Source of the DNA: Elusimicrobiota bacterium
GTDB taxonomy: Bacteria; CG03
Direction: 5' to 3'
Assembly: GCA_021161565.1 (NCBI GenBank)
Contig: JAGHAK010000020.1
Span: 1-33,040, forward strand
DNA: 33,040 nucleotides
In this document: positions 1,024 to 14,175 of the stretch, in pieces
Layout of the letters: each line of letters opens with the position of its first letter
Numbering within the stretch: position 1 is the first letter of the stretch
The notes under the pieces: generated by a model
The model's input: only the letters and a program-made list of their open reading frames with translations
Database searches by the model: none
Told to the model about the DNA's origin: nothing
Made by a program: the position numbers and the translations under genes

Positions 1024-1956
1024 ATGAAAAGAGATTTGATTGAAGTTACAGATTTGTCGAAACGTCAGATTTTAGACCTTCTTTCTCTGACATTTAAAAT
1101 AAAGAAAACCCCGCGGCGATTCTCGCAGTCGCTCAAAGGAAAGATTCTGGCTTTGATTTTTAAGAAACCTTCCACGAGAACCCGCGTTTCGTTTGAAGCT
1201 GGGATGATTCAACTCGGCGGTGCGGCAATTAATCTGAGTTCGAGCGGAATGCAGACATCCCGCGGCGAATCCGTGAAAGACACAGCAAAGACGCTGTCCG
1301 GCTATGTCGACGCGATAATGATAAGGACGACGAGCGACGAGGAAGTTTTCGAACTTGCGAGGGAAAGTTCCGTTCCCGTCATAAACGGTCTTTCGAAATC
1401 GTATCACCCCTGCCAGGCGCTGAGCGACATATTTACCGTGTGCGAGAAAAAGGGGCTGGACGAAAAATCTGTTTATGACTTCGATTGGAGTTCGGTAAAA
1501 ATTGTTTTTGTCGGGGATTCCAATAATGTAAGCAGGTCTCTTGTGAATCTTTCGACGATTTTAAAATTCGAATTTGGTCTGATGTGTCCCGAAAGATTTC
1601 TTTTCGACAGGAGTTTTCTTGCGGAAGCGAAAAAGAAGAACCCGAATTTTCATTTTACATCCAGGATTGACAGAAAATACTTTTCGGACGCCGAATTTAT
1701 TTACACGGATGTGTGGGCAAGCATGGGAGACGAGAAGGAAAGCGCCGCAAGGAGAAGAATTTTTTCGAAATATCAGGTGAATTCCCGCCTTGTGAATATG
1801 GCGGCGAAAAATGTTTCTGTGATGCATTGTCTGCCTGCGATGAGAGGGCAGGAAATAACCGATGAGGTTATGGATTCTGCGAAGTCAATTGTGTTTCAGC
1901 AGGCGGAAAACAGAATGCATTTCCAGAAGGCGCTTCTTTACCGGCTTCTCAAATGA
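1024..1956 (+). CDS. argF: Ornithine carbamoyltransferase
   Basis: STRTR, HPCQ, DVWASMG (ornithine-binding SMG loop), HCLP and QAENR motifs are all canonical. Confidence 0.9.
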   Translation: MKRDLIEVTDLSKRQILDLLSLTFKIKKTPRRFSQSLKGKILALIFKKPSTRTRVSFEAGMIQLGGAAINLSSSGMQTSRGESVKDTAKTLSGYVDAIMIRTTSDEEVFELARESSVPVINGLSKSYHPCQALSDIFTVCEKKGLDEKSVYDFDWSSVKIVFVGDSNNVSRSLVNLSTILKFEFGLMCPERFLFDRSFLAEAKKKNPNFHFTSRIDRKYFSDAEFIYTDVWASMGDEKESAARRRIFSKYQVNSRLVNMAAKNVSVMHCLPAMRGQEITDEVMDSAKSIVFQQAENRMHFQKALLYRLLK

Positions 1957-3161
1957 AAAAAAAGTCGTCTCTCGCCCTGAATATTCAAGCGAAATTAAAG
2001 CGGATAAAAACCGCGAAGGTTCTTGTGGGGATTCCGTCCTACAACAACGAAAAAACGATTTTGAAGGTTCTAAAAACCGTCGAAACAGGTCTTGACAGAT
2101 TTTTCCCGGATGTTTCCTGCACGATAATGGTTTCCGACGGCAATTCCGTCGATAAAACCCTCGACATAGCGTTTGACGATTTCAAGCCGAAACGCGTGAA
2201 GAAAATATGCACCACCTACCGCGGAATTTCGGGGAAAGGAATGGCTATCAGGGCTGTTATGGAAGCGGGGCGTATGCTTAATTCGGAAGTTCTTATGCTT
2301 TTCGATGCTGATTTAAGAAGCATAAAGCCGTGGTGGATAAGGGATGTCGGTCTGCCTCTTCTTAAAAGGAAGTTTGATTTCATTGCGCCTTTTTATGTCC
2401 GCCATCCAAGGGACGGGACCATAACGAATCTGATTACATATCCCTTGACTCGCGCTCTTTACGGGGTGAGGCTGCGCCAGCCTATCGGGGGCGATTTCGG
2501 AATGCGGGCTTCTCTCGTCAGATATTTTCTCGACTGGGCTTACTGGGACGCGGATGTTTCAAAGTTCGGCATAGATATATGGATGACGACGATTGCCGTG
2601 GCGGAATCGTTCAAAATTTCGCAGTGCTTTCTCGGCGTAAAGGAACACGACAGCCGTCAGCCGAGTCAGTTGGGTCCGATGTTCAGGGCGGTTTTGAGCA
2701 CCTCATTCAAACTGATGGAAAGATATGTCCATAAATGGGAACGGTCTTCCGGAAGCGAGGATGTCGGTTTTGCAAATTCGCCTTTCGAGATTTCTCCGCC
2801 GAAGATGACGATTCAGTCGGATGATTATTTCGCGAAATTCGCTTCGTCCGCGCGAAATATGATGAAATTGTGGAAGAACATTTTGGCAGGCGACACTTAC
2901 AGGAAAATCGTCTCCGCTGCCGAAAGAAAAGAATTCGATGGGAAACTCTGGGCGAGGGTTGTCTATGATTTTGCCTGCGTTTTTCACGAATGGGAGAGGG
3001 ACAGATTCAAACTGATAGGTCTTATAACCCCATTTTATTATGCTCGCCTCGGTTCTTTTTTCGAAGAGTGCGAAAAGGAAGACCCTGACAGTGTTGTAGA
3101 GCGCCAGGCGGAAGATTTCGAGGAGGAGAAAAAATATCTCCTAAAAAACTGGAGATACTGA
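1953..3161 (+). CDS. GT-A glycosyltransferase, glucosylglycerate/mannosylglycerate synthase-like
   Basis: GIPSYNN, DGNS, GKG, DAD, DGTITN..YP, RQPIGGDFG, FGIDIWMTT motifs; ATGA overlap with argF. Confidence 0.75.
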   Translation: MKKKSSLALNIQAKLKRIKTAKVLVGIPSYNNEKTILKVLKTVETGLDRFFPDVSCTIMVSDGNSVDKTLDIAFDDFKPKRVKKICTTYRGISGKGMAIRAVMEAGRMLNSEVLMLFDADLRSIKPWWIRDVGLPLLKRKFDFIAPFYVRHPRDGTITNLITYPLTRALYGVRLRQPIGGDFGMRASLVRYFLDWAYWDADVSKFGIDIWMTTIAVAESFKISQCFLGVKEHDSRQPSQLGPMFRAVLSTSFKLMERYVHKWERSSGSEDVGFANSPFEISPPKMTIQSDDYFAKFASSARNMMKLWKNILAGDTYRKIVSAAERKEFDGKLWARVVYDFACVFHEWERDRFKLIGLITPFYYARLGSFFEECEKEDPDSVVERQAEDFEEEKKYLLKNWRY

Positions 3162-4735
3162 TGGAAGAACAGAAGGAACTACTTTTCAAAGAGACAATCG
3201 CGCAGTTGCATCTTCGAAACAGAGTCATTTCGCAGATTCTCCAGATGATGGATATTACTCTCGCGAAAGACACCTTCCTCGAGAAAGTCGTTAAAATTCT
3301 CGAAGAGGCGATACACTGCCGGGTCCAGATTCTCATTGTGGAAAAAAGCACCGGCGAAATGCTTTTTTATCCCGCCACATCCGAAGACGATCTCACTGAT
3401 GAAGATATGGAAAAGCGCGAATTTATCGCGAATGTTTATCACGAAATAGAAGCCAGTCCTGTGGCTGTGGAAAGGAACGGATTTATGTCGTTTCCGATAG
3501 GAGAAAAAAACGACCTGACGGGAATGATAGCGGCGTTCAGTTACGGTGAATCGGCGATTTTTCTTCCGCACGAGGTGAAACTTTTCAACGAAGTAGCCAT
3601 CCTCATCAAGAAAATTCTCGAGAGCGCCGTTGTTATAGACGATATGAATGCTTCTCTGGTGAAAATGAAAAATCTTTTCGAACTGATAAAAGATCTGTCG
3701 AAGATAACTGATTTTGAAGTTCTTCTGTCGAGCGTGGTGAAAGAAACGACAAAAATTCTCGAATGCGAGGGGGCGTCAGTTCTTTTGCTGGACGAGAAAG
3801 AGGAAAATCTCCGCTTTGCCGCGGTTACGGGCGAGGCTTCGGAAAAACTAAAAGGTTATGTTTTTCCAAAGTCCGAGGGCATCGCCGGCTGGGTGCTTTC
3901 CCAGAAAAGAGAGGTCATCGTAAACGAAGTCGACAGGTCTGACCATTTCTCGTCGCGGACGGACGAGGTGGGGGGATACACCACGAGAAATCTTATGGCT
4001 GTTTCTCTCGGATGCGATCACAAGTCCATCGGCGTTATGGAGGCTGTCAACAAAATAAACGGAAAAGATTTTTCGTCTCAGGATTTGCTTTATTTCAGCA
4101 TTCTCTCATCCGAAGTCGCTCACATAATAGAAAGGTCGCGGCTTTACAACGAATTGAACGACGCTTTTCTCAGCACAATCACCGCTCTGACTGACGCTGT
4201 GGAATTCGGCGCGCCGCTTACGGTGCAGCATTCGAAAAATATGAGCAAAAACGCTTTTGATATTGCCCGCGCTATGGGAATCGACGAAAAACACGCCGAA
4301 GACATTTCGGTGGCGGCTTTGCTTCACGATGTCGGCAAAATCGGTGTTCCCGATTCGATTCTGCAGAAGCAGGGACCTCTCGACGATAATGAATGGAAAA
4401 TCGTGAAAAAACATCCCGAAATCGGCGCGAAGATTCTCCAGCCGATTAAAAAATTCGCGCAGGTGATTCCCGTCATAAAAAGTCATCACGAACGGTGGGA
4501 CGGCACAGGATATCCCGACGGGCTTTCGGGGGAGCAAATTCCGATAGGTGCCCGGATTGTCGCGGTTTGCGACGCCTTCGACGCGATGATTTCGGAGCGC
4601 AACTACGGAAGGCGATATTCCGTTCAGGACGCCATCGAGGAGATAATCGCCAATTCGGGAAAGCAGTTCGACCCGAAAGTTGTGGAAGTTTCGATTCCGA
4701 TTTTGAAAAAAGCGAGACAGAGAGAGGAAGAGTGA
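3161..4735 (+). CDS. GAF-domain HD-GYP cyclic-dinucleotide phosphodiesterase
   Basis: GAF signature (GIAGWV...GVMEAVNK..FS..D); HDVGKIG and HHERWDGTGYPDGL motifs intact. Confidence 0.9.
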   Translation: MEEQKELLFKETIAQLHLRNRVISQILQMMDITLAKDTFLEKVVKILEEAIHCRVQILIVEKSTGEMLFYPATSEDDLTDEDMEKREFIANVYHEIEASPVAVERNGFMSFPIGEKNDLTGMIAAFSYGESAIFLPHEVKLFNEVAILIKKILESAVVIDDMNASLVKMKNLFELIKDLSKITDFEVLLSSVVKETTKILECEGASVLLLDEKEENLRFAAVTGEASEKLKGYVFPKSEGIAGWVLSQKREVIVNEVDRSDHFSSRTDEVGGYTTRNLMAVSLGCDHKSIGVMEAVNKINGKDFSSQDLLYFSILSSEVAHIIERSRLYNELNDAFLSTITALTDAVEFGAPLTVQHSKNMSKNAFDIARAMGIDEKHAEDISVAALLHDVGKIGVPDSILQKQGPLDDNEWKIVKKHPEIGAKILQPIKKFAQVIPVIKSHHERWDGTGYPDGLSGEQIPIGARIVAVCDAFDAMISERNYGRRYSVQDAIEEIIANSGKQFDPKVVEVSIPILKKARQREEE

Positions 4736-6000
4736 GCATATTCGGCGGTCGCTTCCGCGGCGGCGTTCATCCGCCGGAGATGAAGGAAACGGCTTCTTCC
4801 GAAATTGTTCGGTTTGAAGCGCCCGAAAAACTTTATATTCATCTTTTTCAGGGATTCGGAAGTCCTTCCAATCCTATTGTGAAAAAAGGAGACAGGGTTT
4901 TGAAAGGTTCTGTCATCGCAGAACCGTCTTCGAAATTTTCCGCTTTTTTACACAGTCCGGTCTCGGGAATTGTTGAGGGTATCGTCAAATGGCCTCATTC
5001 GTCGGGCAAAATGCTCGATGCCGTGGCGATTTCCAATGATTTCGAAAACAAATCCGAAATTCGCGGCGAGGCGAGAATTCACGACCAGCTGACTTCCCGC
5101 GCGATAACGGAAATCATAAGAAATTCAGGCATTGTAGGTCTTGGCGGCGCGGCGTTTCCGACAGACATAAAACTTTCGCCGCCGGTTGGCAAAAAAATAG
5201 ATTTTCTGATCGTAAACGGCTGTGAATGCGAGCCGTATCTCACCTCCGACGACCGCCTTATGATAGAGCGGACGGACGAAATAGCAGAAGGAGCGAAAAT
5301 CGCCGCGAGGGTCCTTTCCGCGCCCAATATAGTGTTTGCGGTGGAGGACAACAAAAGAGAGGCGATTGCCGAACTAAAGAAAAAAGAAGATTCGAGAATA
5401 TCGGTTTCGATTCTGCCTACGAGGTATCCGCAGGGCGGCGAAAAGCAGTTGATTTTCGCGGTTTTGAAAAGAAAAGTTCCAGCCGGCGGCCTTCCCGCTG
5501 ATGTGGGGTGTGTTGTGATAAATGTTCAGACGGCTTTTTCCATTTACAGGTCTGTTGTTTACGGCGTTCCTCTTTACGAAAGGGTTGTCACCCTTGGTGG
5601 TTTTTTCAGAAAGCCAGGGAATATTCTCGCGCCCATAGGCACAACCGTGGGCGACATCATAAACGCGCGCGGCGGCATTCCCGACGATGTCGATAAAATC
5701 GTTCTCGGCGGCGTTATGATGGGGGTCTCCGTTTCGGATTTGAGGATTCCAGTGGCGAAAGGCACTTCCGGAATTTTGCTGCTGAAAACCGAAAAGAAAA
5801 AAGAATTCAACTGCATCAGGTGTCTCAGATGTTCGGATGTCTGCCCGATGAATCTCACCCCGAGGCTTGCCTATTATCTCTATAAAAAAGGGGATGTTTA
5901 CGATGGCGCGAAAAACTGCATCGAATGCGGAAGTTGCGCTTACATTTGTCCGGCGAGAATACCTCTTGTGCATTATCTGAAATGGGCAAAAGCGAAATAG
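4732..6000 (+). CDS. rnfC: Rnf electron transport complex subunit C
   Basis: GGVHP, GIVGLGGAAFPT, NGCECEPYLTSD, YPQGGEKQL, two CxxCxxCxxxCP motifs. Start moved from 4495 to in-frame GTG 4732, which overlaps the upstream TGA (GTGA). Confidence 0.9.
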   Translation: MSIFGGRFRGGVHPPEMKETASSEIVRFEAPEKLYIHLFQGFGSPSNPIVKKGDRVLKGSVIAEPSSKFSAFLHSPVSGIVEGIVKWPHSSGKMLDAVAISNDFENKSEIRGEARIHDQLTSRAITEIIRNSGIVGLGGAAFPTDIKLSPPVGKKIDFLIVNGCECEPYLTSDDRLMIERTDEIAEGAKIAARVLSAPNIVFAVEDNKREAIAELKKKEDSRISVSILPTRYPQGGEKQLIFAVLKRKVPAGGLPADVGCVVINVQTAFSIYRSVVYGVPLYERVVTLGGFFRKPGNILAPIGTTVGDIINARGGIPDDVDKIVLGGVMMGVSVSDLRIPVAKGTSGILLLKTEKKKEFNCIRCLRCSDVCPMNLTPRLAYYLYKKGDVYDGAKNCIECGSCAYICPARIPLVHYLKWAKAK

Positions 6001-6115: not shown

Positions 6116-6448
6116 ATGGCTGGAAGAAAACCGAAAAAGTGCGCCATCTGCGGCAAGAAAATAAAAGGCGACGGTTTTGTTCTGAAAATTGTCTGCTATG
6201 TCGCTTTTGACGGTATCGAAATCAGGCCTGAGGATTTGAGCAAAGATATAAAAAAGCAGATAAGAGACGAGTTGAAAAAAATCAGGAAAATGTCAAAGAA
6301 GCGGCTGCAGGACGAAGTGGCAAAGTGGTGGGAGTTTTCCCTCTGTCAGACCTGCGCGGAGGAATACAGGAAAAACCCGCTGCGAGGAGCAAGAAGAGAA
6401 GGGACAATGTATGAAAAAGGTCGGAATGCAGATTTGTCGTCTGGCTGA
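6116..6448 (+). CDS. Small hypothetical protein, probable Zn-binding (two CxxC pairs)
   Basis: CAIC near the N-terminus and CQTC near the C-terminus, separated by a charged helical segment. Confidence 0.65.
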   Translation: MAGRKPKKCAICGKKIKGDGFVLKIVCYVAFDGIEIRPEDLSKDIKKQIRDELKKIRKMSKKRLQDEVAKWWEFSLCQTCAEEYRKNPLRGARREGTMYEKGRNADLSSG

Positions 6449-7265
6449 AAGGACGGTTTTGAGAACAGGCGGATTCTGCTTTCTTTACAGAGTCGAAAAT
6501 ATAAATCAACTGGCGTCGGTGGTCGCGCGTTTCGGAAAATTTTATTGTCTCGGCAACGGTTCCAATGTCGTCATAAGCGACAGCGGCGTGTCTTTGCCTG
6601 TGATACGTCTTGCCGGCGATTTTGGGAAAATCCGGTTTGAGGGCAATAACGTCATTGCCGGCGCCGGAGTTCCGCTTTCCTTTCTGATTGCTGAATGTGC
6701 GAAAAGGTCTCTCGATGGCATCCAGAACCTTTTCGGAATTCCCGCCACGGTTGGAGGCGCGGTTTACAAAAACGCCGCGGCATTTGGCGTTTCCTTCGGG
6801 GAAAAAGTAAAATGGGCGAATGTTTTCAGGGCCGGCCGCCTGCGAAAGATATCGGGTGGAGAGATAGGATTTGGTTACAGAAAATCCTCTTTTCTGAAGT
6901 CGGATGTCATAACGGAAGTCTGCCTCGAATTGAAAGAAGAAAGGCGGGAGTTTATAGAGGCTGAAATGAGGAAAATAAAGTTGGAAAGAATCAAAAAAGG
7001 TTTCATCGCGGCCCATGGCACGGGTTGCGTGTTCGAAAATCCGAAGGGTTATTTTGCAGGGAAACTGATAGAGGAAATCGGCTGCGGAAGTTTGCGGCGC
7101 GGCGGCGTGTCGGTATCGGAAAATCACGCGAATGTCTTCTCGACATCCCGCTCTTTTTTGGCGAAGGATGTTTTTCTGCTTTCCGAGGAGATAAAAAAAA
7201 GGGTTTTTGACGCGTGGGGCGTTTTCCTGAAAAATCTGATAGAATTTTGGGGAAACCTTATATGA
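6411..7265 (+). CDS. murB: UDP-N-acetylenolpyruvoylglucosamine reductase (divergent)
   Basis: LGNGSNVV, GIPATVGGAV.KNA, FGYRKS, GCVFENP, AGKLIE, HAN motifs; lies upstream of ddl-ftsQ-ftsA. Confidence 0.85.
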   Translation: MKKVGMQICRLAERTVLRTGGFCFLYRVENINQLASVVARFGKFYCLGNGSNVVISDSGVSLPVIRLAGDFGKIRFEGNNVIAGAGVPLSFLIAECAKRSLDGIQNLFGIPATVGGAVYKNAAAFGVSFGEKVKWANVFRAGRLRKISGGEIGFGYRKSSFLKSDVITEVCLELKEERREFIEAEMRKIKLERIKKGFIAAHGTGCVFENPKGYFAGKLIEEIGCGSLRRGGVSVSENHANVFSTSRSFLAKDVFLLSEEIKKRVFDAWGVFLKNLIEFWGNLI

Positions 7266-8164
7266 AAAAAATCAGAAAAGTTGCGGTTCTTGCGGGTGTG
7301 TGGGAGTCGGAAAGGGAAATATCTTTTAGAACCGCTTCGGCGGTTTGCGCCTCTCTCATCCGTCTTGGTTATGAAGCGAAAATAATAGATATCGGCAGGG
7401 GCAAAAAGGCGGAAAAAATTCAGGATTTTTCTCCCGATTTTTGTTTCATCGCCTGTCACGGGCGCCTCGGCGAGGATGGAACTCTTCAGGGATTTTTGAA
7501 GACGCTCGGAATACCGTTTGGCGGTTCGGGCATTCTCGCCTCGTCGGTGGGCATGGACAAGATAGTCTCGAAGGAAATTTTCGCCGTTCTGGGATTAAAG
7601 ACGCCGCCAGGAATTTTTCTGAAAAAAACCGGGAAAATTCCACGGCTGAGGAGATTTATTCCTTTTGTCGCGAAGCCCTCGAGAGAAGGTTCCACCGTCG
7701 GGATGAGCATTGTCAGGAGCGTTCGGGGCATATCCGCCGCGATTGAGAAGGCTTTCAGGTATGATGACAGGATAATCGTGGAGAAATACATAGAAGGGAG
7801 AGAATTTACAGTGGGTTATCTCGCCGGGGCTGTTCTCCCCCCTCTTGAAATTGTGCCGAAAAACGAGTGCTATGATTACGAGTCGAAGTATGTTCGGGGA
7901 ATGAGCGACCACATTGTCCCCGCGAAAATCGCCGCGAGAGAAACGAGGTTTCTCAAAAGTGCGACCCAAAAAATCTGCGAATTCTTGCGCGTCCGCGGCG
8001 CCGCGCGCGTGGACTTTCTGCGCTCGTCGGCAGGCGTTTATTATGTTCTTGAACTCAACACTATTCCCGGAATGACTCCGACAAGCCTTCTTCCCGAAGC
8101 CGCATCGGCGGTTGGAATCGATTTTGACGGCGTTGTGGAAAAGATAATTTCTGATTGCGAATGA
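7262..8164 (+). CDS. ddl: D-alanine--D-alanine ligase
   Basis: EREIS, HGRLGEDG, MDKI, KP..EGS, EKYIEGRE, YDYESKY, ELNTIPGMT. Start at ATG 7262 (ATGA overlap with murB). Confidence 0.92.
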   Translation: MKKIRKVAVLAGVWESEREISFRTASAVCASLIRLGYEAKIIDIGRGKKAEKIQDFSPDFCFIACHGRLGEDGTLQGFLKTLGIPFGGSGILASSVGMDKIVSKEIFAVLGLKTPPGIFLKKTGKIPRLRRFIPFVAKPSREGSTVGMSIVRSVRGISAAIEKAFRYDDRIIVEKYIEGREFTVGYLAGAVLPPLEIVPKNECYDYESKYVRGMSDHIVPAKIAARETRFLKSATQKICEFLRVRGAARVDFLRSSAGVYYVLELNTIPGMTPTSLLPEAASAVGIDFDGVVEKIISDCE

Positions 8165-8946
8165 GACGCAGAAGATTTAAAACCAGAAAAAATGGGATTC
8201 TGAAATTCGCGCTGTTTGCTCTTATTGTCTTTGCTGTTTTCACTCTTGGGCATTTTATTTACGGGTTTCTTCTTTCCTGGGACAAACTCAATGTCAGAAA
8301 AATAGAGGTCCGCGGGGCAAAAGTTTTAGGCCCAGATCGCGTGAAATCTTTCCTGAATCAGCGTGCGGGGAAAAACATCTTCACATACAAACTCGACGGA
8401 AAAAAAGTCGCGCGGGAAAAATGGATAAAAAAAGCGGAAATTGTGAGGGATTTTCCCGACAGAATTGTTGTAAAAATCAGAGAGCGAACGCCTCTGGCTG
8501 TTTTCGCGCGGCAGGGGAGGGAATTTGTTATTTCCGCCGATGGTTGGATCCTGGATAAAGCCTCTTTGGCGAAAAAAATTTACAAACTGCCCTTTTTTCC
8601 TGATTACGGCAAAATTTCCGCGGAAAAAAGGAAACAGGCGAGGGATTTTCTCAGGCATCTGCGCCGGGAAGAAGTCGATTTTTACAGGAGCGCGAAGAAG
8701 TTTTCGTATTCCGGAGATTCCCTCAAAATGATTCTGGACGGGTTCACGGTTTATTTCGGCAAAATTTCTCCGGATCTGGCAAATTCGAAAATTCAGGCGG
8801 TAAAAAAAATTATTGCGGATGCAGGGAAAAAGGGTGTCGGGATCGAGTATCTCGATTTGCGACCATTTACAAGAAAAACGCAAAGTGCTATTATTAAAAC
8901 TAAAAAATTACCGAAGGGAAGTTTGAAAAAGGAAAATGGCATCTGA
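8161..8946 (+). CDS. ftsQ: Cell division protein FtsQ/DivIB
   Basis: Basic N-tail, single TM helix, POTRA-like 'WIKKAEIVRDFPDRIVVKIRER', C-terminal YLDLR; between ddl and ftsA; ATGA overlap at 8161. Confidence 0.85.
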   Translation: MRRRRFKTRKNGILKFALFALIVFAVFTLGHFIYGFLLSWDKLNVRKIEVRGAKVLGPDRVKSFLNQRAGKNIFTYKLDGKKVAREKWIKKAEIVRDFPDRIVVKIRERTPLAVFARQGREFVISADGWILDKASLAKKIYKLPFFPDYGKISAEKRKQARDFLRHLRREEVDFYRSAKKFSYSGDSLKMILDGFTVYFGKISPDLANSKIQAVKKIIADAGKKGVGIEYLDLRPFTRKTQSAIIKTKKLPKGSLKKENGI

Positions 8947-10153
8947 AATTCTTCAGGCTGGTCTTGAGATAGGTTCTTCTCATATTAAGTGTGTCATAGG
9001 GAAAGTGTCGGGTGAGACAATCAGAGTCCTTGGCGCTTCTTCCACGAGGTGCAAGGGTATTCAGGACGGCAATGTCGTTAATATTGCGAAGACAATCGAG
9101 GCGATTAGGGAAGTTGTTGGAATGTCCGAAGAGCAGGCGAAGCAGAACATAAATTATGTGAATCTCGGGCTTCACGGGCTGCACATCCAGTCGCAAAACC
9201 ATATCGGCGCGATAGGAATTGTCTCGCAGGACAGGGAAATAGGCGTCCATGACATTCGTCAGGTTCTGGAATCGGCGCGTGGTTCGAGTCATTACACAAT
9301 GGGAACGCAGATAATACACACGATTCCGCAGGAATACATTGTCGATAATCAGCGCGGCGTTGTCGATCCTCAGGGAATGGTCGCGAATCATTTGAAAGTA
9401 AATGTCCACATCGTCACGGCGCTCACCTCCGCCATAATAAATCTCAGAAGATGCGTGGAGAAGGCGGGTTTCGGAATAAATCATTTGATTTTGGCGTCGC
9501 TGGCGGCGTCCGATGTTATTTTGCTTGACGAGGAAAGGGACATAGGATGTATTCTCATCGACTTCGGCGGGCGGTTGTGCGAAGTCAGTTATTATTCTTC
9601 CGGGGCGATTCGGGGATTCGCGGCGTTCTCCAACGCCAGCGACAACATTACGGGCGACCTTGCTTATTTTTTCAAAACTTCCCATGAAGAAGCCGCGAGA
9701 ATAAAAGAGGATTTCGGGTTTGCGACTCCAGCCCATATTCCGAAAGAGGGCAAGGTAACCATAACGAAGATCGACGGCAGAACGAGAGAGGAAGTTCCGA
9801 TAAAGGCGGTTTCGAAGGCGATAAACGACAGGCTTGAAGACATATTCGAAAGAGTCAACGCGCAGATTGCGAAGTTTGTCGGAAGGCCGGAGATGATAGC
9901 CAGTTGCGTGGTCACCGGCGGCGGCGCGAAACTTCCGGGCATCGCGGAGTTTTTTCAGGAAAGAACGGGGATTATCACCCGTCTCGGGCTTGTGAGAAAC
10001 TGCATAGGAGACGATGAAGTTGTAAACGACCCCGCCTATACCGCGGCAATAGGGCTTTTGAAATACGACATAACAAAGGAAGCCCCCACGCTCGGCGGCA
10101 AAAGCGGCCACCGGAGAAAAGGGCTTATCGAGTGGCTGAGAAAAATTTTTTAA
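8936..10153 (+). CDS. ftsA: Cell division protein FtsA
   Basis: GLEIGSSHI, 1C domain 'IIHTIPQEYIVD...DPQGM', TGGGAKLPG, C-terminal amphipathic helix GLIEWLRKIF. Confidence 0.92.
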   Translation: MASEILQAGLEIGSSHIKCVIGKVSGETIRVLGASSTRCKGIQDGNVVNIAKTIEAIREVVGMSEEQAKQNINYVNLGLHGLHIQSQNHIGAIGIVSQDREIGVHDIRQVLESARGSSHYTMGTQIIHTIPQEYIVDNQRGVVDPQGMVANHLKVNVHIVTALTSAIINLRRCVEKAGFGINHLILASLAASDVILLDEERDIGCILIDFGGRLCEVSYYSSGAIRGFAAFSNASDNITGDLAYFFKTSHEEAARIKEDFGFATPAHIPKEGKVTITKIDGRTREEVPIKAVSKAINDRLEDIFERVNAQIAKFVGRPEMIASCVVTGGGAKLPGIAEFFQERTGIITRLGLVRNCIGDDEVVNDPAYTAAIGLLKYDITKEAPTLGGKSGHRRKGLIEWLRKIF

Positions 10154-10172
10154 TATTTTTCGAGGAGGAGAA

Positions 10173-11249
10173 GTGAGAACGAACAAGTTTCTTGGAAAAG
10201 ATTGGATTGACGCGGAATTGGATTTCACAAAAGAGGAGTGGGAAACGCTGATTGAAGTCGGTCTCGAACTGAAAAAACGGCATGCGATGAATCAGGACCA
10301 GACTGAAATTTTGAAAGGAAAAACGCTTTTTACGATGTTTTTTAATCAGTCCCTTCGGACGAGAAGCACATTCGCCGCAGGCATTCAGCAGCTCGGAGGT
10401 TTTCATGTCGACCTCGAACCGGGAAAGACCTACACTCCCGCGCGGGAAGGTTTTGATATTCCGTATAAAACAGAGAGAATTGCAGATGTTTCGAGAATGC
10501 TCAACAGGGTGGGAGATGCGATAGCCATAAGGATGTATGGTCCGCCGGCTTACTGGATTTACGGATTTGCCAATTCCACAATCAAGGAATTCGCCCAGTA
10601 TGCCGAAATTCCGATAATAAATATGGAATGCGACAAGTATCATCCCACGCAGGCTCTCGCCGACCTGATTACGATAAAGGAGAAATTCGGCACATTCAAG
10701 GGAATCAATCTTACGATGTCGTGGGCGTATTCGGGTTCTATCGAAAAGCCACGGGCTGTGCCGCAGAGTGTGGTTCTCGCCGCCGCGAAAATGGGAATGA
10801 ATGTGACGCTCGCTCATCCTAAAGGTTTTGAACTCGACCCCGAAGTGATTGCGGCCTGCGAAAAGTTCTCCGCCGAAACTGACGGGTCTTTCAGAATTAC
10901 AAATGATTTCGACGAAGGTTTCAAAGGCGCGCATATTGTCTATCCCAAGTCATGGGGCTCCGTTTACTGTTTCAATTACACAGACAAAACAGGAAAAACC
11001 GTCAAGAAACAGGATTTGGAAAAGGCTGAGAAAGTCAACAACGAGAACAAAAACTGGAGAACGACAAAAAAGCAAATGGAACTCGTCGACAAGCATGGGA
11101 TTTATATGCACTGTCTTCCCGCAGACAGGGGCCAGGAAGTGGATGACGATGTTATTGACGGTGAGAGGTCTGTCGTGATTGACGAAGCGGAAAACCGTCT
11201 CCACGCCCACAAAGCGATTATGGCGATGATTATGGGCGGCAGACTATAA
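10173..11249 (+). CDS. Carbamoyltransferase, knotted (YgeW/N-acyl-ornithine type) subfamily, paralog A
   Basis: FFNQSLRTRS, HPTQ, SWAYSGSIEKPRAVPQS (compare YgeW-type WAYS...KP..VPQ), VYPKSWG, HCLP; no SMG loop; GTG start after GAGGAGG. Confidence 0.85.
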   Translation: MRTNKFLGKDWIDAELDFTKEEWETLIEVGLELKKRHAMNQDQTEILKGKTLFTMFFNQSLRTRSTFAAGIQQLGGFHVDLEPGKTYTPAREGFDIPYKTERIADVSRMLNRVGDAIAIRMYGPPAYWIYGFANSTIKEFAQYAEIPIINMECDKYHPTQALADLITIKEKFGTFKGINLTMSWAYSGSIEKPRAVPQSVVLAAAKMGMNVTLAHPKGFELDPEVIAACEKFSAETDGSFRITNDFDEGFKGAHIVYPKSWGSVYCFNYTDKTGKTVKKQDLEKAEKVNNENKNWRTTKKQMELVDKHGIYMHCLPADRGQEVDDDVIDGERSVVIDEAENRLHAHKAIMAMIMGGRL

Positions 11250-11270
11250 AATGCAAAAATCAAAAATCAA
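11248..11270 (+). repeat. 7-nt-period array
   Basis: AAAATGC AAAAATC AAAAATC AA; approximate reverse complement of the TTTTGCATTTT/TTTGATT tract at 41-94. Confidence 0.55.
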
Positions 11271-11291
11271 GAGGATAAAGAGGGGGATAAT

Positions 11292-12323
11292 ATGGCTAAG
11301 TCTGAACTTTTTGGAAAAGATTTAATCTGTTCCCAGGATTGGAGAAGGCCGGAACTCGACGAAATTCTGGAACTGGCGAAAAAGATGAAGGAAAAAAGAT
11401 TTTCGCCGGAATACACCAGCCTTCTAAAGGACAGAACATTTTTTATGTTTTTTTACAATCCTTCCGTGAGGACTCGTCAGAGTTTCGAATGCGCCGCAAC
11501 GGAACTCGGCGGCCACGCCCAGTTTCTTGAGCCCAAAACGATGAGATTGAAAACGGCCAAAAGCGCGGGCGAAACCACGGAAGACGCCGCCAAGGTTATG
11601 AGCAGATATGCTTGCGGGCTGGGAATCAGAATTCTCGAGGATAAAATTTCCGCATACGGTCAGGGCGACGCGCTTCTGCGCGAATACGCAAAATATGCGT
11701 CGATTCCCGTTGTCAGCATGGCTCACGACAAGTTTCATCCCTGTCAGGGTCTGGCCGACATAATGGGAATTGAGGAACATCTCGGCGAGGATTTGAAAGG
11801 CAAAAAAATTTTGATAACCTGGGCGCACGGGGCGCTTGCGAGAAGTTTATGCAGCGTGCAGGAAGCAGCTCTTTTGGCTTCGAGATACGGGATGGATGTG
11901 ACGATCGCTCATCCGGAAGGTTACGACCTTGACGCGGAAGTTATGGATGTTGTCGGAAAGAACTGCGCTGAAAACGGAGCGAAATTCGAAATTACCAACG
12001 ATGTGAAAGAAGGATACAGGGGGGCTCATGTTGTGTATTCCAGAAACTGGATGAGTCCGAATGCCTATCACGGCGGTGAATTCCACAAACAGGAAGAAAT
12101 AGAAAAGGCGCTTCGGTATACAGATTGGATTTGCGATGCCGAAAAAATGAAGCTTTCCGAAAACGCTCTTTTTACTCATCCTATGCCCATAGACAGAGGG
12201 CATGAGGTGACAGATGAAGTTGCTTCAGGTCCGCGCTCTATAATTTATGATGTTGCGGAAAACCGCCTTCATGTCCAGAAAGCGATAATGGCTCTGACAA
12301 TGAGCGAGAAATTGAATAAGTAA
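11292..12323 (+). CDS. Carbamoyltransferase, non-canonical paralog B
   Basis: FYNPSVRTRQSF, HPCQGLAD, TWAHGALARS, YSRNW, HPMP in place of HCLP, AENRLH. Confidence 0.85.
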   Translation: MAKSELFGKDLICSQDWRRPELDEILELAKKMKEKRFSPEYTSLLKDRTFFMFFYNPSVRTRQSFECAATELGGHAQFLEPKTMRLKTAKSAGETTEDAAKVMSRYACGLGIRILEDKISAYGQGDALLREYAKYASIPVVSMAHDKFHPCQGLADIMGIEEHLGEDLKGKKILITWAHGALARSLCSVQEAALLASRYGMDVTIAHPEGYDLDAEVMDVVGKNCAENGAKFEITNDVKEGYRGAHVVYSRNWMSPNAYHGGEFHKQEEIEKALRYTDWICDAEKMKLSENALFTHPMPIDRGHEVTDEVASGPRSIIYDVAENRLHVQKAIMALTMSEKLNK

Positions 12324-12333
12324 GGGAGGAAAA

Positions 12334-13299
12334 ATGTCAAAAGTTGCTGTTGTTGCGGTCGGCGGTAATTCGCTGATAAAGGATAAAGAACATCAGGCGG
12401 TTCCCGACCAGTATATGGCTGCTGTCGAAACAATGAAGCACATCGCGACAATGATTCAGAGCGGCTGGGATGTTGTCGTTACCCATGGCAATGGTCCGCA
12501 GGTCGGTTTTATTCTTCTGAGAAGCGAAGCGGGGAAAAAAGTTTTCGGGCTTCACACTGTTCCGCTTGATTCCTGCGGCGCCGACACACAGGGAGCGATT
12601 GGATACAATTTCCAGCAGGCTCTTTCCAACGAATTCAGGCGCAGAGGGGTCAATAAATCGGTTGCCACTGTTGTCACGAGAGTTCTTGTTGACAAAGACG
12701 ATCCCGCATTTCAAAATCCGACAAAACCTATAGGGCCTTTTCTCGAAAAAGAAGAAGCGATGATGAGAAAGGAGAAAGAAGGTTGGAATGTGATGGAAGA
12801 CGCCGGTCGCGGCTGGCGCAGAGTCGTTCCCTCTCCGGACCCGAAGTCCATACTTGAAGAAAAAGCAATTGAAACTCTTGTCAGGGGAGGTTTTGTCGTT
12901 ATAGCGGTCGGCGGCGGCGGCATTCCCGTGATAGAGGTCAAGAAAAAAAATATCATAAAGGGCTGCGCAGCGGTGATTGACAAGGATTTTGCTTCATCGC
13001 TTCTCGCCTCCAACATAAATGCGGATTTGTTTTTGATATCCACGGCGGTCGAGAAAGTTTGTCTCAATTTCGGCTCGCCTGATGAGAAAAAAATTGATAA
13101 AATGACTCTTTCGGAAGCGAAGAAATATAAGGAAGAAGGGCATTTTAAAAAGGGCAGTATGCTTCCCAAGATTGAAGCGGTGATAAGGTTCCTTGAAAAA
13201 GGCGGTAAGCAGGCGCTTATTACCTGCCCGGAGAAGATAGAAGAAGCCCTTGCCGGAAAAACGGGAACCTGGATTGTTTCCGAAAATTTGCGGGCGTAG
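12334..13299 (+). CDS. arcC: Carbamate kinase
   Basis: VAVGGNS, THGNGPQVG, PTKPIGPF, GRGWRRVVPSP, GGGGIPV, AVIDKD, GSMLPK. Confidence 0.95.
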   Translation: MSKVAVVAVGGNSLIKDKEHQAVPDQYMAAVETMKHIATMIQSGWDVVVTHGNGPQVGFILLRSEAGKKVFGLHTVPLDSCGADTQGAIGYNFQQALSNEFRRRGVNKSVATVVTRVLVDKDDPAFQNPTKPIGPFLEKEEAMMRKEKEGWNVMEDAGRGWRRVVPSPDPKSILEEKAIETLVRGGFVVIAVGGGGIPVIEVKKKNIIKGCAAVIDKDFASSLLASNINADLFLISTAVEKVCLNFGSPDEKKIDKMTLSEAKKYKEEGHFKKGSMLPKIEAVIRFLEKGGKQALITCPEKIEEALAGKTGTWIVSENLRA

Positions 13300-13363
13300 T
13301 TCAGTTGGCTAGAACGCAACCTTGCCAAGGTTGAGGTCGTGGGTTCGAACCCCATCGCCCGCT
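13290..13363 (+). tRNA. tRNA-Gly(GCC), CCA not encoded
   Basis: Acceptor GCGGGCG/CGCCCGC, D-stem GTTC/GAAC, anticodon stem CAACC/GGTTG with loop TTGCCAA, T-loop TTCGAAC, discriminator T. Confidence 0.96.
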
Positions 13364-13589
13364 TTATTGCTTTGCAGGGTTCGAAGCCGACCCGAGCGCA
13401 TCCTTAACGGATGAAAAGCGAAGCGTCAGCGAGGGCGGCAGGCTTCGGCGGGTGCCGGTCGCGATGAATAAAGAGCGACGACCGAGCCCAAAGGGCGAGG
13501 GAAAGGCACGGGCGCGAGGCGGTGAGCGCCCCGGGTCCGAAGGACAGTGGCTACGACGGGGGAGAAGGAACCCCATCGCCCGCTTTATT
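13347..13589 (+). repeat. 22-bp direct repeat of the tRNA-Gly 3' end (13347-13368 and 13568-13589)
   Basis: GAACCCCATCGCCCGCTTTATT is present twice, identical, 221 bp apart. Confidence 0.92.
13377..13573 (+). ncRNA. Putative structured RNA or miniature tRNA-associated element of unknown family
   Basis: GC-rich, no credible ORF, closed by GGGTTC/GAACCC with at least five internal helices (see findings). Confidence 0.5.
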
Positions 13590-13590
13590 A

Positions 13591-13639
13591 AGCGAATAGA
13601 GAATAGCGAATAGAGGCGAGAGATTAGAGATTAGAGGTT
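13591..13639 (+). repeat. 7-nt-period purine-rich array
   Basis: AGCGAAT AGAGAAT AGCGAAT AGAGGCG AGAGATT AGAGATT AGAGGTT. Confidence 0.75.
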
Positions 13640-13659
13640 GGGAGAAAACTGGAGGTAAA

Positions 13660-14175
13660 ATGTTTCTTCAGGATGTGGTTTCGGAAAAGACGATAATTAC
13701 TGATTTGGAAGTCGCAGACAAAGAGGAAGTTTTGAAGAAGATGACAGAAGTTCTCGATTCCGCCGGCGTTCTTTCCGACAGGAATAAGTTTTATGATTCC
13801 GTTATAGAACGAGAAAGCCTCGAATCCACCGCAATCGGCGATGGTATCGCGATTCCGCACGCCAAAGGCGATTTTGTGAAAAAGATTTTTTGCTGTTTCG
13901 CCCGGCTAAAAAACGCCGTTGATTTTAATTCCCTCGACGGGAATCCCGTAAAAATGGTTTTTCTTGTCGCCGCGCCCGCGGATATGAACAGAGAATACAT
14001 ACAAATCGTCGCCAAAGCCGCGCGACTCTTGAAGAGCGGCGTTATGAGAGAACATCTTCACAACGCGGCAACGCCGAAAGATGTTCTCGCGATTTTCAGC
14101 GATTTCGATAAAATTCTCCAGCAGTCCCTTTCCGTCAAAACAAAGGAAGGCAGGGTGATTCACAAAGATATGTGA
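13660..14175 (+). CDS. PTS EIIA component (fructose/mannitol/Ntr family)
   Basis: RESLESTAIGDGIAIPHAK with phospho-acceptor His; VDFNSLDGNPVKMVFL. Confidence 0.9.
   Translation: MFLQDVVSEKTIITDLEVADKEEVLKKMTEVLDSAGVLSDRNKFYDSVIERESLESTAIGDGIAIPHAKGDFVKKIFCCFARLKNAVDFNSLDGNPVKMVFLVAAPADMNREYIQIVAKAARLLKSGVMREHLHNAATPKDVLAIFSDFDKILQQSLSVKTKEGRVIHKDM

Follow-up and report, generated by a model that had tools for sequence, protein, structure and literature searches.

What do two different carbamoyltransferases contribute when their genes stand in tandem with a carbamate kinase gene and a canonical ornithine carbamoyltransferase (OTCase) is encoded elsewhere on the same contig? This question is raised by positions 10,173 to 13,299 of a 33,040-nucleotide stretch of DNA from an Elusimicrobiota bacterium (GenBank assembly GCA_021161565.1, contig JAGHAK010000020.1). 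The stretch, referred to below as the window, is an entire contig (C68) of a genome of 1.52 Mb that is 95% complete. We designate the two carbamoyltransferases A and B, and the three genes the trio. The trio is most likely a variant of the known YgeW/YqeA-type pathway, the link to purines being judged from related genomes. To the overall explanation, namely that the trio encodes a catabolic module gaining ATP from two different ureido groups of purine-derived ureido compounds, we assign an even chance. The unit comprises the following features, in the order in which they occur.

10162..10169, + strand: Shine-Dalgarno-like GAGGAGGA preceding A (sequence read)
10173..11249, + strand: carbamoyltransferase A; open reading frame (ORF) with a GTG start, 358 aa; Pfam PF02729 and PF00185
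11280..11287, + strand: Shine-Dalgarno-like GAGGGGGA preceding B (sequence read)
11292..12323, + strand: carbamoyltransferase B; ORF, 343 aa; Pfam PF02729 and PF00185; SVRT, HPCQ, HPMP and YSRNW
12323..12329, + strand: Shine-Dalgarno-like AGGGAGG preceding arcC, overlapping the final base of the B stop codon
12334..13299, + strand: carbamate kinase arcC (ArcC/YqeA type); ORF, 321 aa; NCBIfam TIGR00746 and NF009007
13290..13363, + strand: tRNA-Gly(GCC) (ARAGORN; Rfam RF00005, 68.8 bits)

A, B and arcC are real, conserved genes, far beyond chance. The original prediction, made from the letters of the window alone, described three adjacent genes with strong ribosome binding sites and a set of family motifs, all of which were confirmed by the ORFs, by regular-expression searches of the translations and by reading of the sequence. 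The translation of A contains SLRT (residue 60), HPTQ (157), WAYS (184) followed by ..KPRAVPQ, YPKSW (257) and HCLP (313), and that of B contains SVRT (58), HPCQ (149), WAHG (177), YSRNW (249) and HPMP (296). Each protein matches the two Pfam carbamoyltransferase domains with E-values of 1e-34 to 1e-36; with these domains and the motifs SxRT, HPxQ and HxLP (HPMP in B), both belong to the aspartate/ornithine carbamoyltransferase superfamily. The arcC product, 49% identical to E. coli YqeA, exceeds the cut-offs of two NCBIfam models, scoring 398.6 bits with TIGR00746 (358.25 required) and 420.4 bits with NF009007 (266 required). The purine runs lie 4-6 nt ahead of the three starts. A follows the ftsA stop (10153) after 19 nt, B follows A after 42 nt and arcC follows B after 10 nt. 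Since the 5' end of the tRNA-Gly(GCC) overlaps the end of arcC, its first 10 bases being shared with the 3' end of the gene, the tRNA forms the 3' border of the three-gene unit. Scanning from ftsA to the tRNA for consensus promoters and terminators gave nothing convincing, with no promoter-like site between ftsA and A, and the tRNA was the only match in an Rfam scan of positions 13200-13700.

A and B are 36% identical to each other and, as had been proposed, non-canonical: both fall under all curated family cut-offs and lack the specificity residues of OTCase and of N-acetylornithine carbamoyltransferase (AOTCase). The claims that neither protein has the SMG loop and that a canonical argF is present separately at 1024 were upheld by regular expressions and by the NCBIfam OTCase models. 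Neither SMG nor DxxxSMG occurs in the translations of A and B, and the Lys of the OTCase motif FxKxSxRT is replaced in both (FFNQSLRT in A, FYNPSVRT in B); the product of argF (1024-1956) contains FKKPSTRT, DVWASMG and HCLP and passes the OTCase models (NF001986, 365.5 bits, cut-off 306). A and B scored 229.7 and 220.4 bits with the OTCase model TIGR00658 (cut-off 280.85), and 189.3 and 204.4 bits with TIGR04384 for putrescine carbamoyltransferase (PTCase, cut-off 500). With the YgeW models TIGR03316 and NF005538 (cut-offs 500 and 453), the scores were 166.1 and 177.5 bits for A and 130.9 and 135.5 bits for B. Both proteins were also far under the aspartate carbamoyltransferase (ATCase) cut-off of NCBIfam.

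Public annotation uses the names OTCase or AOTCase, which raises the possibility that one or both are biosynthetic N-acyl-ornithine carbamoyltransferases of the AOTCase or SOTCase type. The AOTCase model NF003384 is indeed the best NCBIfam model for both proteins, with scores (256.0 bits for A, 259.6 bits for B) that remain under the cut-off of 288. The AOTCase of Xanthomonas campestris (PDB 3KZK and others) is closest to both among solved proteins in sequence (179 bits for A, 210 bits for B) and in fold, archaeal OTCases coming second in sequence; for YgeW (3Q98) the scores were 154 bits with A and 115 bits with B, and for SOTCase 104 bits with A and 91 bits with B, likeness to SOTCase being judged solely by these PDB sequence scores. 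AlphaFold2 models of A and B (mean predicted local distance difference test scores, pLDDT, of 87.7 and 93.9) superpose best on AOTCase by TM-score and root mean square deviation (TMq 0.83-0.88, 2.3-2.4 Å), the best Foldseek E-value for the A model belonging to a Pyrococcus OTCase. In addition, 11 related loci (L008, L013, L014, L023, L024, L036, L038, L040, L045, L055 and L070) have a canonical OTCase gene downstream of the trio, at a distance of a few genes.

The active sites argue against such a function. Residues were mapped through alignments to AOTCase (3M5C/3KZC) and Table 1 of a review of the family (PMC4581275), in which the substrate residues of AOTCase are given as Trp77*, Glu92, Asn185 and Lys302, plus Glu144 and Lys252. 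A keeps Glu144 and Lys252 (as E152 and K259) together with the equivalents of HCLP and Arg322, and has Thr for Trp77, Arg for Asn185 and Glu for Lys302. In B, Trp77 is absent, Ala replaces Glu144, Arg replaces Lys252, Glu replaces Lys302 and HPMP replaces HCLP. The position of Glu92 is ambiguous in the alignment, and the 120's loop of both proteins aligns to that of AOTCase with a gap of at most one residue. Knotted carbamoyltransferases are marked by a proline-rich loop and an extended 120's loop. At the place of the former, A has KPRAVPQ, with P193 and P197 invariant across the family, and B has WAHGALARSLCSVQ, which contains no proline. All carbamoyl-phosphate-binding positions are kept in A and B and are invariant in 40 A and 36 B orthologues from many phyla. 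The 36 B sequences share S58, R60, T61, R62, R113, H149, P150, Q152, H296-P299 and R325, and the HPMP motif (Met for the usual Leu), Ala144 and Arg251 are likewise invariant. The active-site features listed for A and B are thus traits of their families, and this invariance indicates that neither protein is a decayed copy. By their domains and conserved catalytic site, A and B are bona fide carbamoyltransferases, with second-substrate pockets that differ from each other. The loss of Trp77 and the Glu for Lys302 in both proteins, the Ala and Arg of B at positions 144 and 252, the presence of a canonical argF, and neighbours that are kinase and catabolic purine genes rather than arg genes all speak against an AOTCase-type function, which we consider very improbable; unlike X. 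campestris AOTCase, A and B stand in a catabolic gene context.

The phylogeny was examined in two trees. A first tree (quick IQ-TREE, LG+G4, with the Shimodaira-Hasegawa-like approximate likelihood ratio test, SH-aLRT) contained 153 carbamoyltransferases from related loci, the window, its genome and E. coli, proteins shorter than 290 aa or longer than 420 aa being excluded. A fell into a clade of 77 rows (support 99) and B into a clade of 55 rows (support 100), and A, B and YgeW shared a larger clade, of 138 rows and with support 100, to which ArgI, ArgF and PyrB did not belong. For a second tree, of 158 rows, a search with B supplied the 150 best library representatives at 50% identity, of which 105 were added and those outside 295-420 aa dropped; A was sampled at one sequence in five and B at one in four. 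Its AOTCase clade was named by the NCBIfam labelling of ten library representatives rather than by named AOTCase sequences; it holds 30 rows (support 99), including P0156 (355 bits) and P0189 (421 bits), which pass the AOTCase cut-off, and does not contain A, B or YgeW. In that tree, A was placed within a YgeW-containing group of 36 rows (SH-aLRT 95) and B in its own clade of 27 rows (support 89), the supports of deeper nodes being just 66-76. The check by phylogeny that the original prediction proposed thus placed A and B outside the AOTCase-labelled clade and apart from the canonical enzymes. Fold and tree together suggest that A is an AOTCase-like enzyme on the YgeW side and that B represents a separate family.

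Conservation of the trio was assessed by an A-centred scan of one genome per species, which returned 80 loci with 55-89% identity to A, all from metagenome-assembled genomes (MAGs), of phyla that include Elusimicrobiota, Neomarinimicrobiota, Cloacimonadota, Chloroflexota, Vulcanimicrobiota and Myxococcales. Members of the trio were counted by tblastn, B at a threshold of ≥50% identity and within 8 kb of A. Of the 80 loci, 49 contain B and 44 contain the kinase, 42 loci having both. As 17 of the 31 loci without B have too little flanking sequence, B is present in 49 of 63 decidable loci. Whole genomes behind 15 of the B-less loci revealed a B orthologue elsewhere in 14 (58-74% identity), four of these unlinked matches containing one TAA within the matched stretch; the remaining genome (G002) has no B. 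A and B therefore occur together in 63 of the 64 genomes judged. The phylum of the window, represented by 26 species genomes, follows the same pattern: A (≥69% identity) is present in 17, and B lies directly downstream in all 17. Two others (G019 and G020) have B beside an A-like paralogue of 43% identity, G019 also holding a fragment of A with an in-frame TGA. Conservation of the pair with arcC, one of the checks suggested at the outset, was thus found for A and B, with the kinase in somewhat more than half of the loci.

So strict an association could mean that A and B are subunits of one hetero-oligomeric carbamoyltransferase with a single substrate, for instance stacked trimers A3B3, and the fixed A-then-B order in the phylum and the short intergenic gaps would suit such an enzyme. 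Gene order elsewhere is mostly A-B-kinase. However, six loci (L003, L005, L009, L010, L021 and L032) have the order B-kinase-A, and A is unlinked from B in 14 of the 63 decidable loci. The catalytic site is complete and invariant in both proteins, so neither looks like a regulatory or pseudo-enzyme partner. In three loci (L070, L108 and L109), a B-type gene (55-56% identity) directly follows not A but a true YgeW gene, whose product is 58-59% identical to E. coli YgeW. Every family member of solved structure that the review names forms a homotrimer or a multiple of one (PMC4581275). These observations make the hetero-oligomer improbable. The ability of B to pair with either A or YgeW is what would be expected of an enzyme acting at a second step.

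One of these loci merits a description of its own. A single MAG contig (L070:640-9063) carries a true YgeW gene (59% identity to E. coli), a B-type gene, the kinase, ThrC-like, CysK-like and OTCase genes, and an A gene broken into two frames of 246 aa and 129 aa; the presence of YgeW may go along with decay of A.

The pathway to which YgeW and YqeA belong degrades purines. According to recent reports, urate is reduced to 2,8-dioxopurine, YgfK dearomatises the ring system, SsnA and HyuA open the rings to give 2,3-diureidopropionate, YgeW phosphorolyses one ureido group, YgeY hydrolyses the other and YgeX leads to pyruvate (bioRxiv 10.1101/2025.05.19.654654; PMC12507026; bioRxiv 10.1101/2025.04.24.650524; PMC12990295). 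YgeW and YqeA are described as obtaining ATP from 2,3-diureidopropanoate (bioRxiv 10.1101/2025.04.24.650524), and it is disputed which of the two groups YgeW removes, as are the sequence and the chemistry of the ureido cleavages (PMC12990295). A variant with two carbamoyltransferases is not described in the literature searched, of which the pathway papers were covered in passages of their text; their figures and supplements may show such clusters. E. coli YgeW (YTCase, PDB 3Q98) is encoded together with YqeA, so that a carbamoyltransferase stands beside a carbamate kinase there as here, and a carbamate kinase gene nearby is given as a catabolic marker for YgeW/YTCase (PMC4581275). SsnA, a YgeY-like M20 hydrolase, Xdh, YgfK and MobA are neighbours shared by the YgeW/YqeA system and A-B loci of other genomes. 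The differences are that the YgeW system has one carbamoyltransferase instead of two, that YgeW is only 33% identical to A and 30% to B, which are 40-50 residues shorter, and that the diaminopropionate lyase YgeX is missing from the 80 A loci, in which a ThrC-like pyridoxal phosphate (PLP) enzyme is seen instead.

Two other systems combine a carbamoyltransferase with carbamate kinase. The arginine and agmatine deiminase pathways (catabolic OTCase or PTCase plus kinase) use the same logic of ureido phosphorolysis to ATP; unlike them, the trio is accompanied by no deiminase match in the genome, A and B have no DxxxSMG loop, and their scores with the PTCase model are under its cut-off. The absence of deiminases had been claimed for the window and holds for the whole 95%-complete genome, in which neither arginine deiminase (TIGR01078) nor agmatine deiminase (TIGR03380) had a match anywhere. 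The ureidoglycine carbamoyltransferase (UGTCase) of Rubrobacter has been proposed to act with carbamate kinase in purine catabolism (PMC4016543). UGTCase belongs to the unknotted ATCase branch and has the motif H(T/S)LP (PMC4581275), unlike A and B, which are on the AOTCase/YgeW side and have HCLP and HPMP.

Purine genes are indeed found near the trio in other genomes. Clustering of the ORFs of the 80 loci and annotation of family representatives revealed, as recurrent neighbours, the ThrC-like enzyme (20 loci), a CysK-like PLP enzyme of 490 aa (11), a YgeY-like M20 hydrolase (13), a MobA-like protein (8), the Mo subunit of Xdh (7) and YgfK (8 of 80, with 34-47% identity to E. coli YgfK). The amidohydrolases of seven loci are either SsnA, with 525 bits against a cut-off of 444, or 8-oxoguanine deaminase, with 636 bits against 532. 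All counts by ORF family are undercounts, opposite-strand shadow ORFs (family f8) having been called in some loci. One arrangement, in an Elusimicrobiota genome (L036), reads 8-oxoguanine deaminase, two HEAT-like genes, SsnA (525 bits), M20, an unknown protein of 333 aa, A, B, kinase, ThrC-like enzyme, canonical OTCase and further genes. Within the phylum, SsnA exceeded its cut-off in 15 of the 17 A-bearing genomes, the exceptions being a 66%-complete genome and the genome of the window. Linkage to purine genes, the other check put forward with the original prediction, was therefore obtained for xdh, ssnA, ygeY-like and ygfK genes near the trio elsewhere; it failed for YgeX, no orthologue of which was detected in any of the 80 loci by comparison with the E. 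coli protein, and for the window itself, which holds no such gene. A 402-aa PLP neighbour examined as a candidate YgeX was rejected, since NCBIfam classes it as threonine-synthase-like and E. coli YgeX matches it with at most 28% identity over at most 171 aa.

Genes related to those of the purine pathway are present elsewhere in the genome of the window. Its XdhD-like gene, 41% identical along its entire length, scored 900.9 bits (cut-off 1101.9) and is accompanied by a YgfM-like subunit; the genome also has other Xdh-type genes, a dihydropyrimidinase/hydantoinase-like gene (317.7 bits, cut-off 393) and an 8-oxoguanine deaminase on contig C45 (L082:5882-7348), unlinked to the trio. Contig C141 carries a distant YgeY-like M20 gene beside a member of a 323-397 aa protein family (L081:1591-2637, minus strand), with a CysK-like gene two genes away from the M20 gene. 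True YgeW was not found with the YgeW model. The genome also has carA, carB (52% identity over 1060 aa) and pyrB on contig C65, and the kinase is thus not needed for making carbamoyl phosphate. This bears on the proposal that the kinase works anabolically, forming carbamoyl phosphate from carbamate, and that A and B carbamoylate amines for a biosynthetic product. Carbamoyltransferase reactions are reversible, and an antibiotic-pathway diaminopropionate carbamoyltransferase makes beta-ureidoalanine (PMC4581275). With carAB present, conserved neighbours that are degradative, and no biosynthetic neighbours of the non-ribosomal peptide synthetase type among the 80 loci, an anabolic role seems highly unlikely. 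That A and B form a catabolic pair feeding the kinase from purine-derived ureido compounds is, in our view, probable.

That A and B act on the two ureido groups of the same compound is less likely, and several observations weigh against the simplest version of this explanation. A YgeY-like M20 gene lies beside A-B in many loci (L008, L013, L014, L023, L036, L038, L040, L044 and L046), and the retention of this hydrolase indicates that B does not simply replace the hydrolytic step. An M20 hydrolase is adjacent to SsnA in five genomes of the phylum. The A-B module and a YgeW-YgeY module coexist in six of the 26 phylum genomes (G021, G022, G023, G030, G036 and G037); three such enzymes outnumber the two ureido groups, which requires a different substrate for at least one of them. 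A does not stand beside B in the 14 loci mentioned above, and its neighbours there (peptidases, glycosyltransferases, an epimerase and a transporter) are uninformative, with the exception of adenosine deaminase in L074 and L078. The genome of the window gave no SsnA over the cut-off (the best match, 172 bits against 444, is the 8-oxoguanine deaminase), no YgeX and only a partial YgfK; at 95% completeness such absences are not proof, which applies equally to true YgeW and the deiminases. The window contains no purine gene, the trio being surrounded by cell-division and housekeeping genes. Finally, P0134, which barely exceeds the AOTCase cut-off (295 bits), is the sister of the A family in the second tree, so that the border with AOTCase-like proteins is not sharp. 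The persistence of M20, the coexistence with YgeW-YgeY and the lack of SsnA here call for caution, since equating the substrates with the two ureido groups of diureidopropionate may be too simple.

Both modules occur in the phylum. True YgeW (597-613 bits) is present in nine of the 26 genomes, and true YgeY (>550 bits) directly adjoins it in eight; in the ninth (G021), only a partial M20 match is found beside YgeW. True YgeY was not detected in any of the 11 phylum genomes with A and B and without YgeW. In seven genomes (G028, G029, G032, G033, G034, G036 and G037), A-B lies beside SsnA and a different M20 (283-307 bits, cut-off 321), and in G030 beside SsnA and an M20 gene with an internal stop (226 bits). 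Only five phylum genomes gave a YgeX, with 46-49% identity to the E. coli protein.

These data bear on a further explanation, in which A and B act on ureido compounds of different origin and share only the kinase. One substrate would be a purine-derived intermediate and the other, for example, an N-carbamoyl amino acid, the pyrimidine product N-carbamoyl-beta-alanine or a ring-opened compound from an earlier step, for instance ureidomethyl-hydantoin, B and the ThrC-like enzyme forming a module of their own. The coexistence of A, B and YgeW in six of 26 genomes favors this view, as does a further carbamoyltransferase type of 327 aa beside YgeY in L058 and L064. Where A is elsewhere, B remains together with the ThrC-like gene, either with the kinase (L101) or without it (L103), and the ThrC-like gene was labelled in five of 12 B-centred loci. 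The ThrC-like enzyme is a separate paralogue of canonical ThrC in the genome of the window and in three of five others tested, and the former genome has the dihydropyrimidinase/hydantoinase-like gene and lacks an SsnA over the cut-off. However, near-strict co-occurrence of A and B (63 of 64 genomes; 17 of 17 in the phylum) is not expected of two independent pathways, and the shared neighbours are purine genes, not pyrimidine genes. We therefore regard separate origins of the two substrates as rather unlikely.

The ThrC-like paralogue follows B or the kinase in many phyla, at the place where E. coli would have YgeX. It scored 174-212 bits with TIGR00260, against 250-326 bits for canonical ThrC of the same genomes; in the genome of the window, canonical ThrC (326 bits) is on C128 and the paralogue (199 bits) on C66. 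Occurrences of the paralogue are given below.

Contig C66 (L083:1225-2475); L036:11091-12302; L101; L103; L109: ThrC-like paralogue, threonine-synthase-like

Three further observations concern the gene clusters around A and B. A conserved protein of 323-397 aa, with no Pfam or NCBIfam match, is encoded between the YgeY-like M20 and A in five loci (L036, at 6930-7931, L023, L024, L038 and L040) and is a candidate for a missing step of the variant pathway, such as ring opening. An 8-oxoguanine deaminase (607-636 bits, cut-off 532) heads the SsnA/A/B clusters of L023, L024, L036 and L040; it would make urate from 8-oxoguanine. The 327-aa carbamoyltransferase type (L058:2280-3248 and L064:6693-7667) is 42% identical to A and 38% to B, stands between true YgeY (53% identity to E. 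coli) and A on two Cloacimonadota-type contigs, and groups near YgeW.

Of the explanation that A, B and the kinase form one catabolic module, the intact and conserved genes, the catalytic carbamoyl-phosphate site kept by both enzymes, their co-occurrence and the linkage to the kinase and, in other genomes, to purine genes are established. We infer which way the reaction runs, that the substrates derive from purines in this organism and, above all, what the two substrates are. A and B would run phosphorolytically, converting a ureido compound and phosphate to an amine and carbamoyl phosphate, and the kinase would convert carbamoyl phosphate and ADP to ATP, CO2 and NH3. The ureido compounds would most likely come from anaerobic reductive breakdown of purines or urate of the 2,8-dioxopurine type. 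A, the closer relative of YgeW, would remove one ureido group, and B, with its Arg-rich and differently built pocket, a second and different one, carried by the same C3 backbone or by the next intermediate. Up to two carbamoyl phosphates, and hence up to two ATP, would be conserved rather than one. Two successive, different steps are suggested because the pockets are intact but different, because co-occurrence is near-strict even when the genes are unlinked, and because B pairs with either A or YgeW. The specific proposal that a single diureidopropionate-type intermediate yields both of its ureido groups to A and B falls somewhat short of an even chance. Equally tentative is a broader version, in which A, B, the kinase, the ThrC-like enzyme and the unknown protein (333-348 aa) would constitute a widespread and undescribed lower branch of the anaerobic 2,8-dioxopurine pathway, both ureido groups being phosphorolysed with a yield of two ATP per ring rather than one and the ThrC-like enzyme replacing YgeX.

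The reductive urate pathway was solved only in 2025, and a two-enzyme phosphorolytic variant would, if true, double the ATP obtained per purine ring. It would also define substrates for two large carbamoyltransferase families now named ornithine or N-acetylornithine carbamoyltransferase, correct hundreds of annotations in uncultured anaerobes of many phyla, and possibly offer better parts for engineered urate-degrading probiotics. The neighbourhood survey of PMC12507026, as described there, took any PF00185 protein as YgeW; surveys of this kind merge at least three different enzymes.

The trio is set among genes of other functions. The + strand encodes, from the 5' end, a cyclase-like protein, the canonical argF, GT2-like, GAF/HD and RnfC-like proteins, murB, ddl, ftsQ and ftsA, followed by A, B, the carbamate kinase and tRNA-Gly. 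Downstream of the tRNA are a phosphotransferase system EIIA gene, nadC and a birA-like gene and, farther on, queA on the minus strand. The immediate neighbours of the two carbamoyltransferase genes are accordingly ftsA, the kinase gene and the tRNA, with canonical argF 9 kb upstream. The row murB-ddl-ftsQ-ftsA (6411-10153) continues into the carbamoyltransferase genes and not into ftsZ, which was not seen in the window. Five DNA runs from two studies labelled hydrothermal vent metagenome contain part of the window, the best of them perhaps being the sample of origin; no RNA runs containing it are listed.

At the tRNA border, a 22-nt sequence (GAACCCC...TTTATT) at 13347-13368, made of the last 17 bases of tRNA-Gly(GCC) and five more, is perfectly repeated at 13568-13589, 221 nt downstream, and is followed by three 14-nt tandem units (13591-13632). 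The 22-nt repeats resemble att sites, in which case the integrated element between them would now be reduced to only some 200 G+C-rich bases. The window (1024-6000) and the Elusimicrobiota locus L036 (12286-15773) both have a canonical argF within a few genes of an RnfC-like gene, and in L036 argF comes directly after the cluster's ThrC-like gene. The RnfC-like ORF of the window (4495-6000) shares 240 nt with the GAF/HD ORF ahead of it, and its true start is therefore probably farther downstream.

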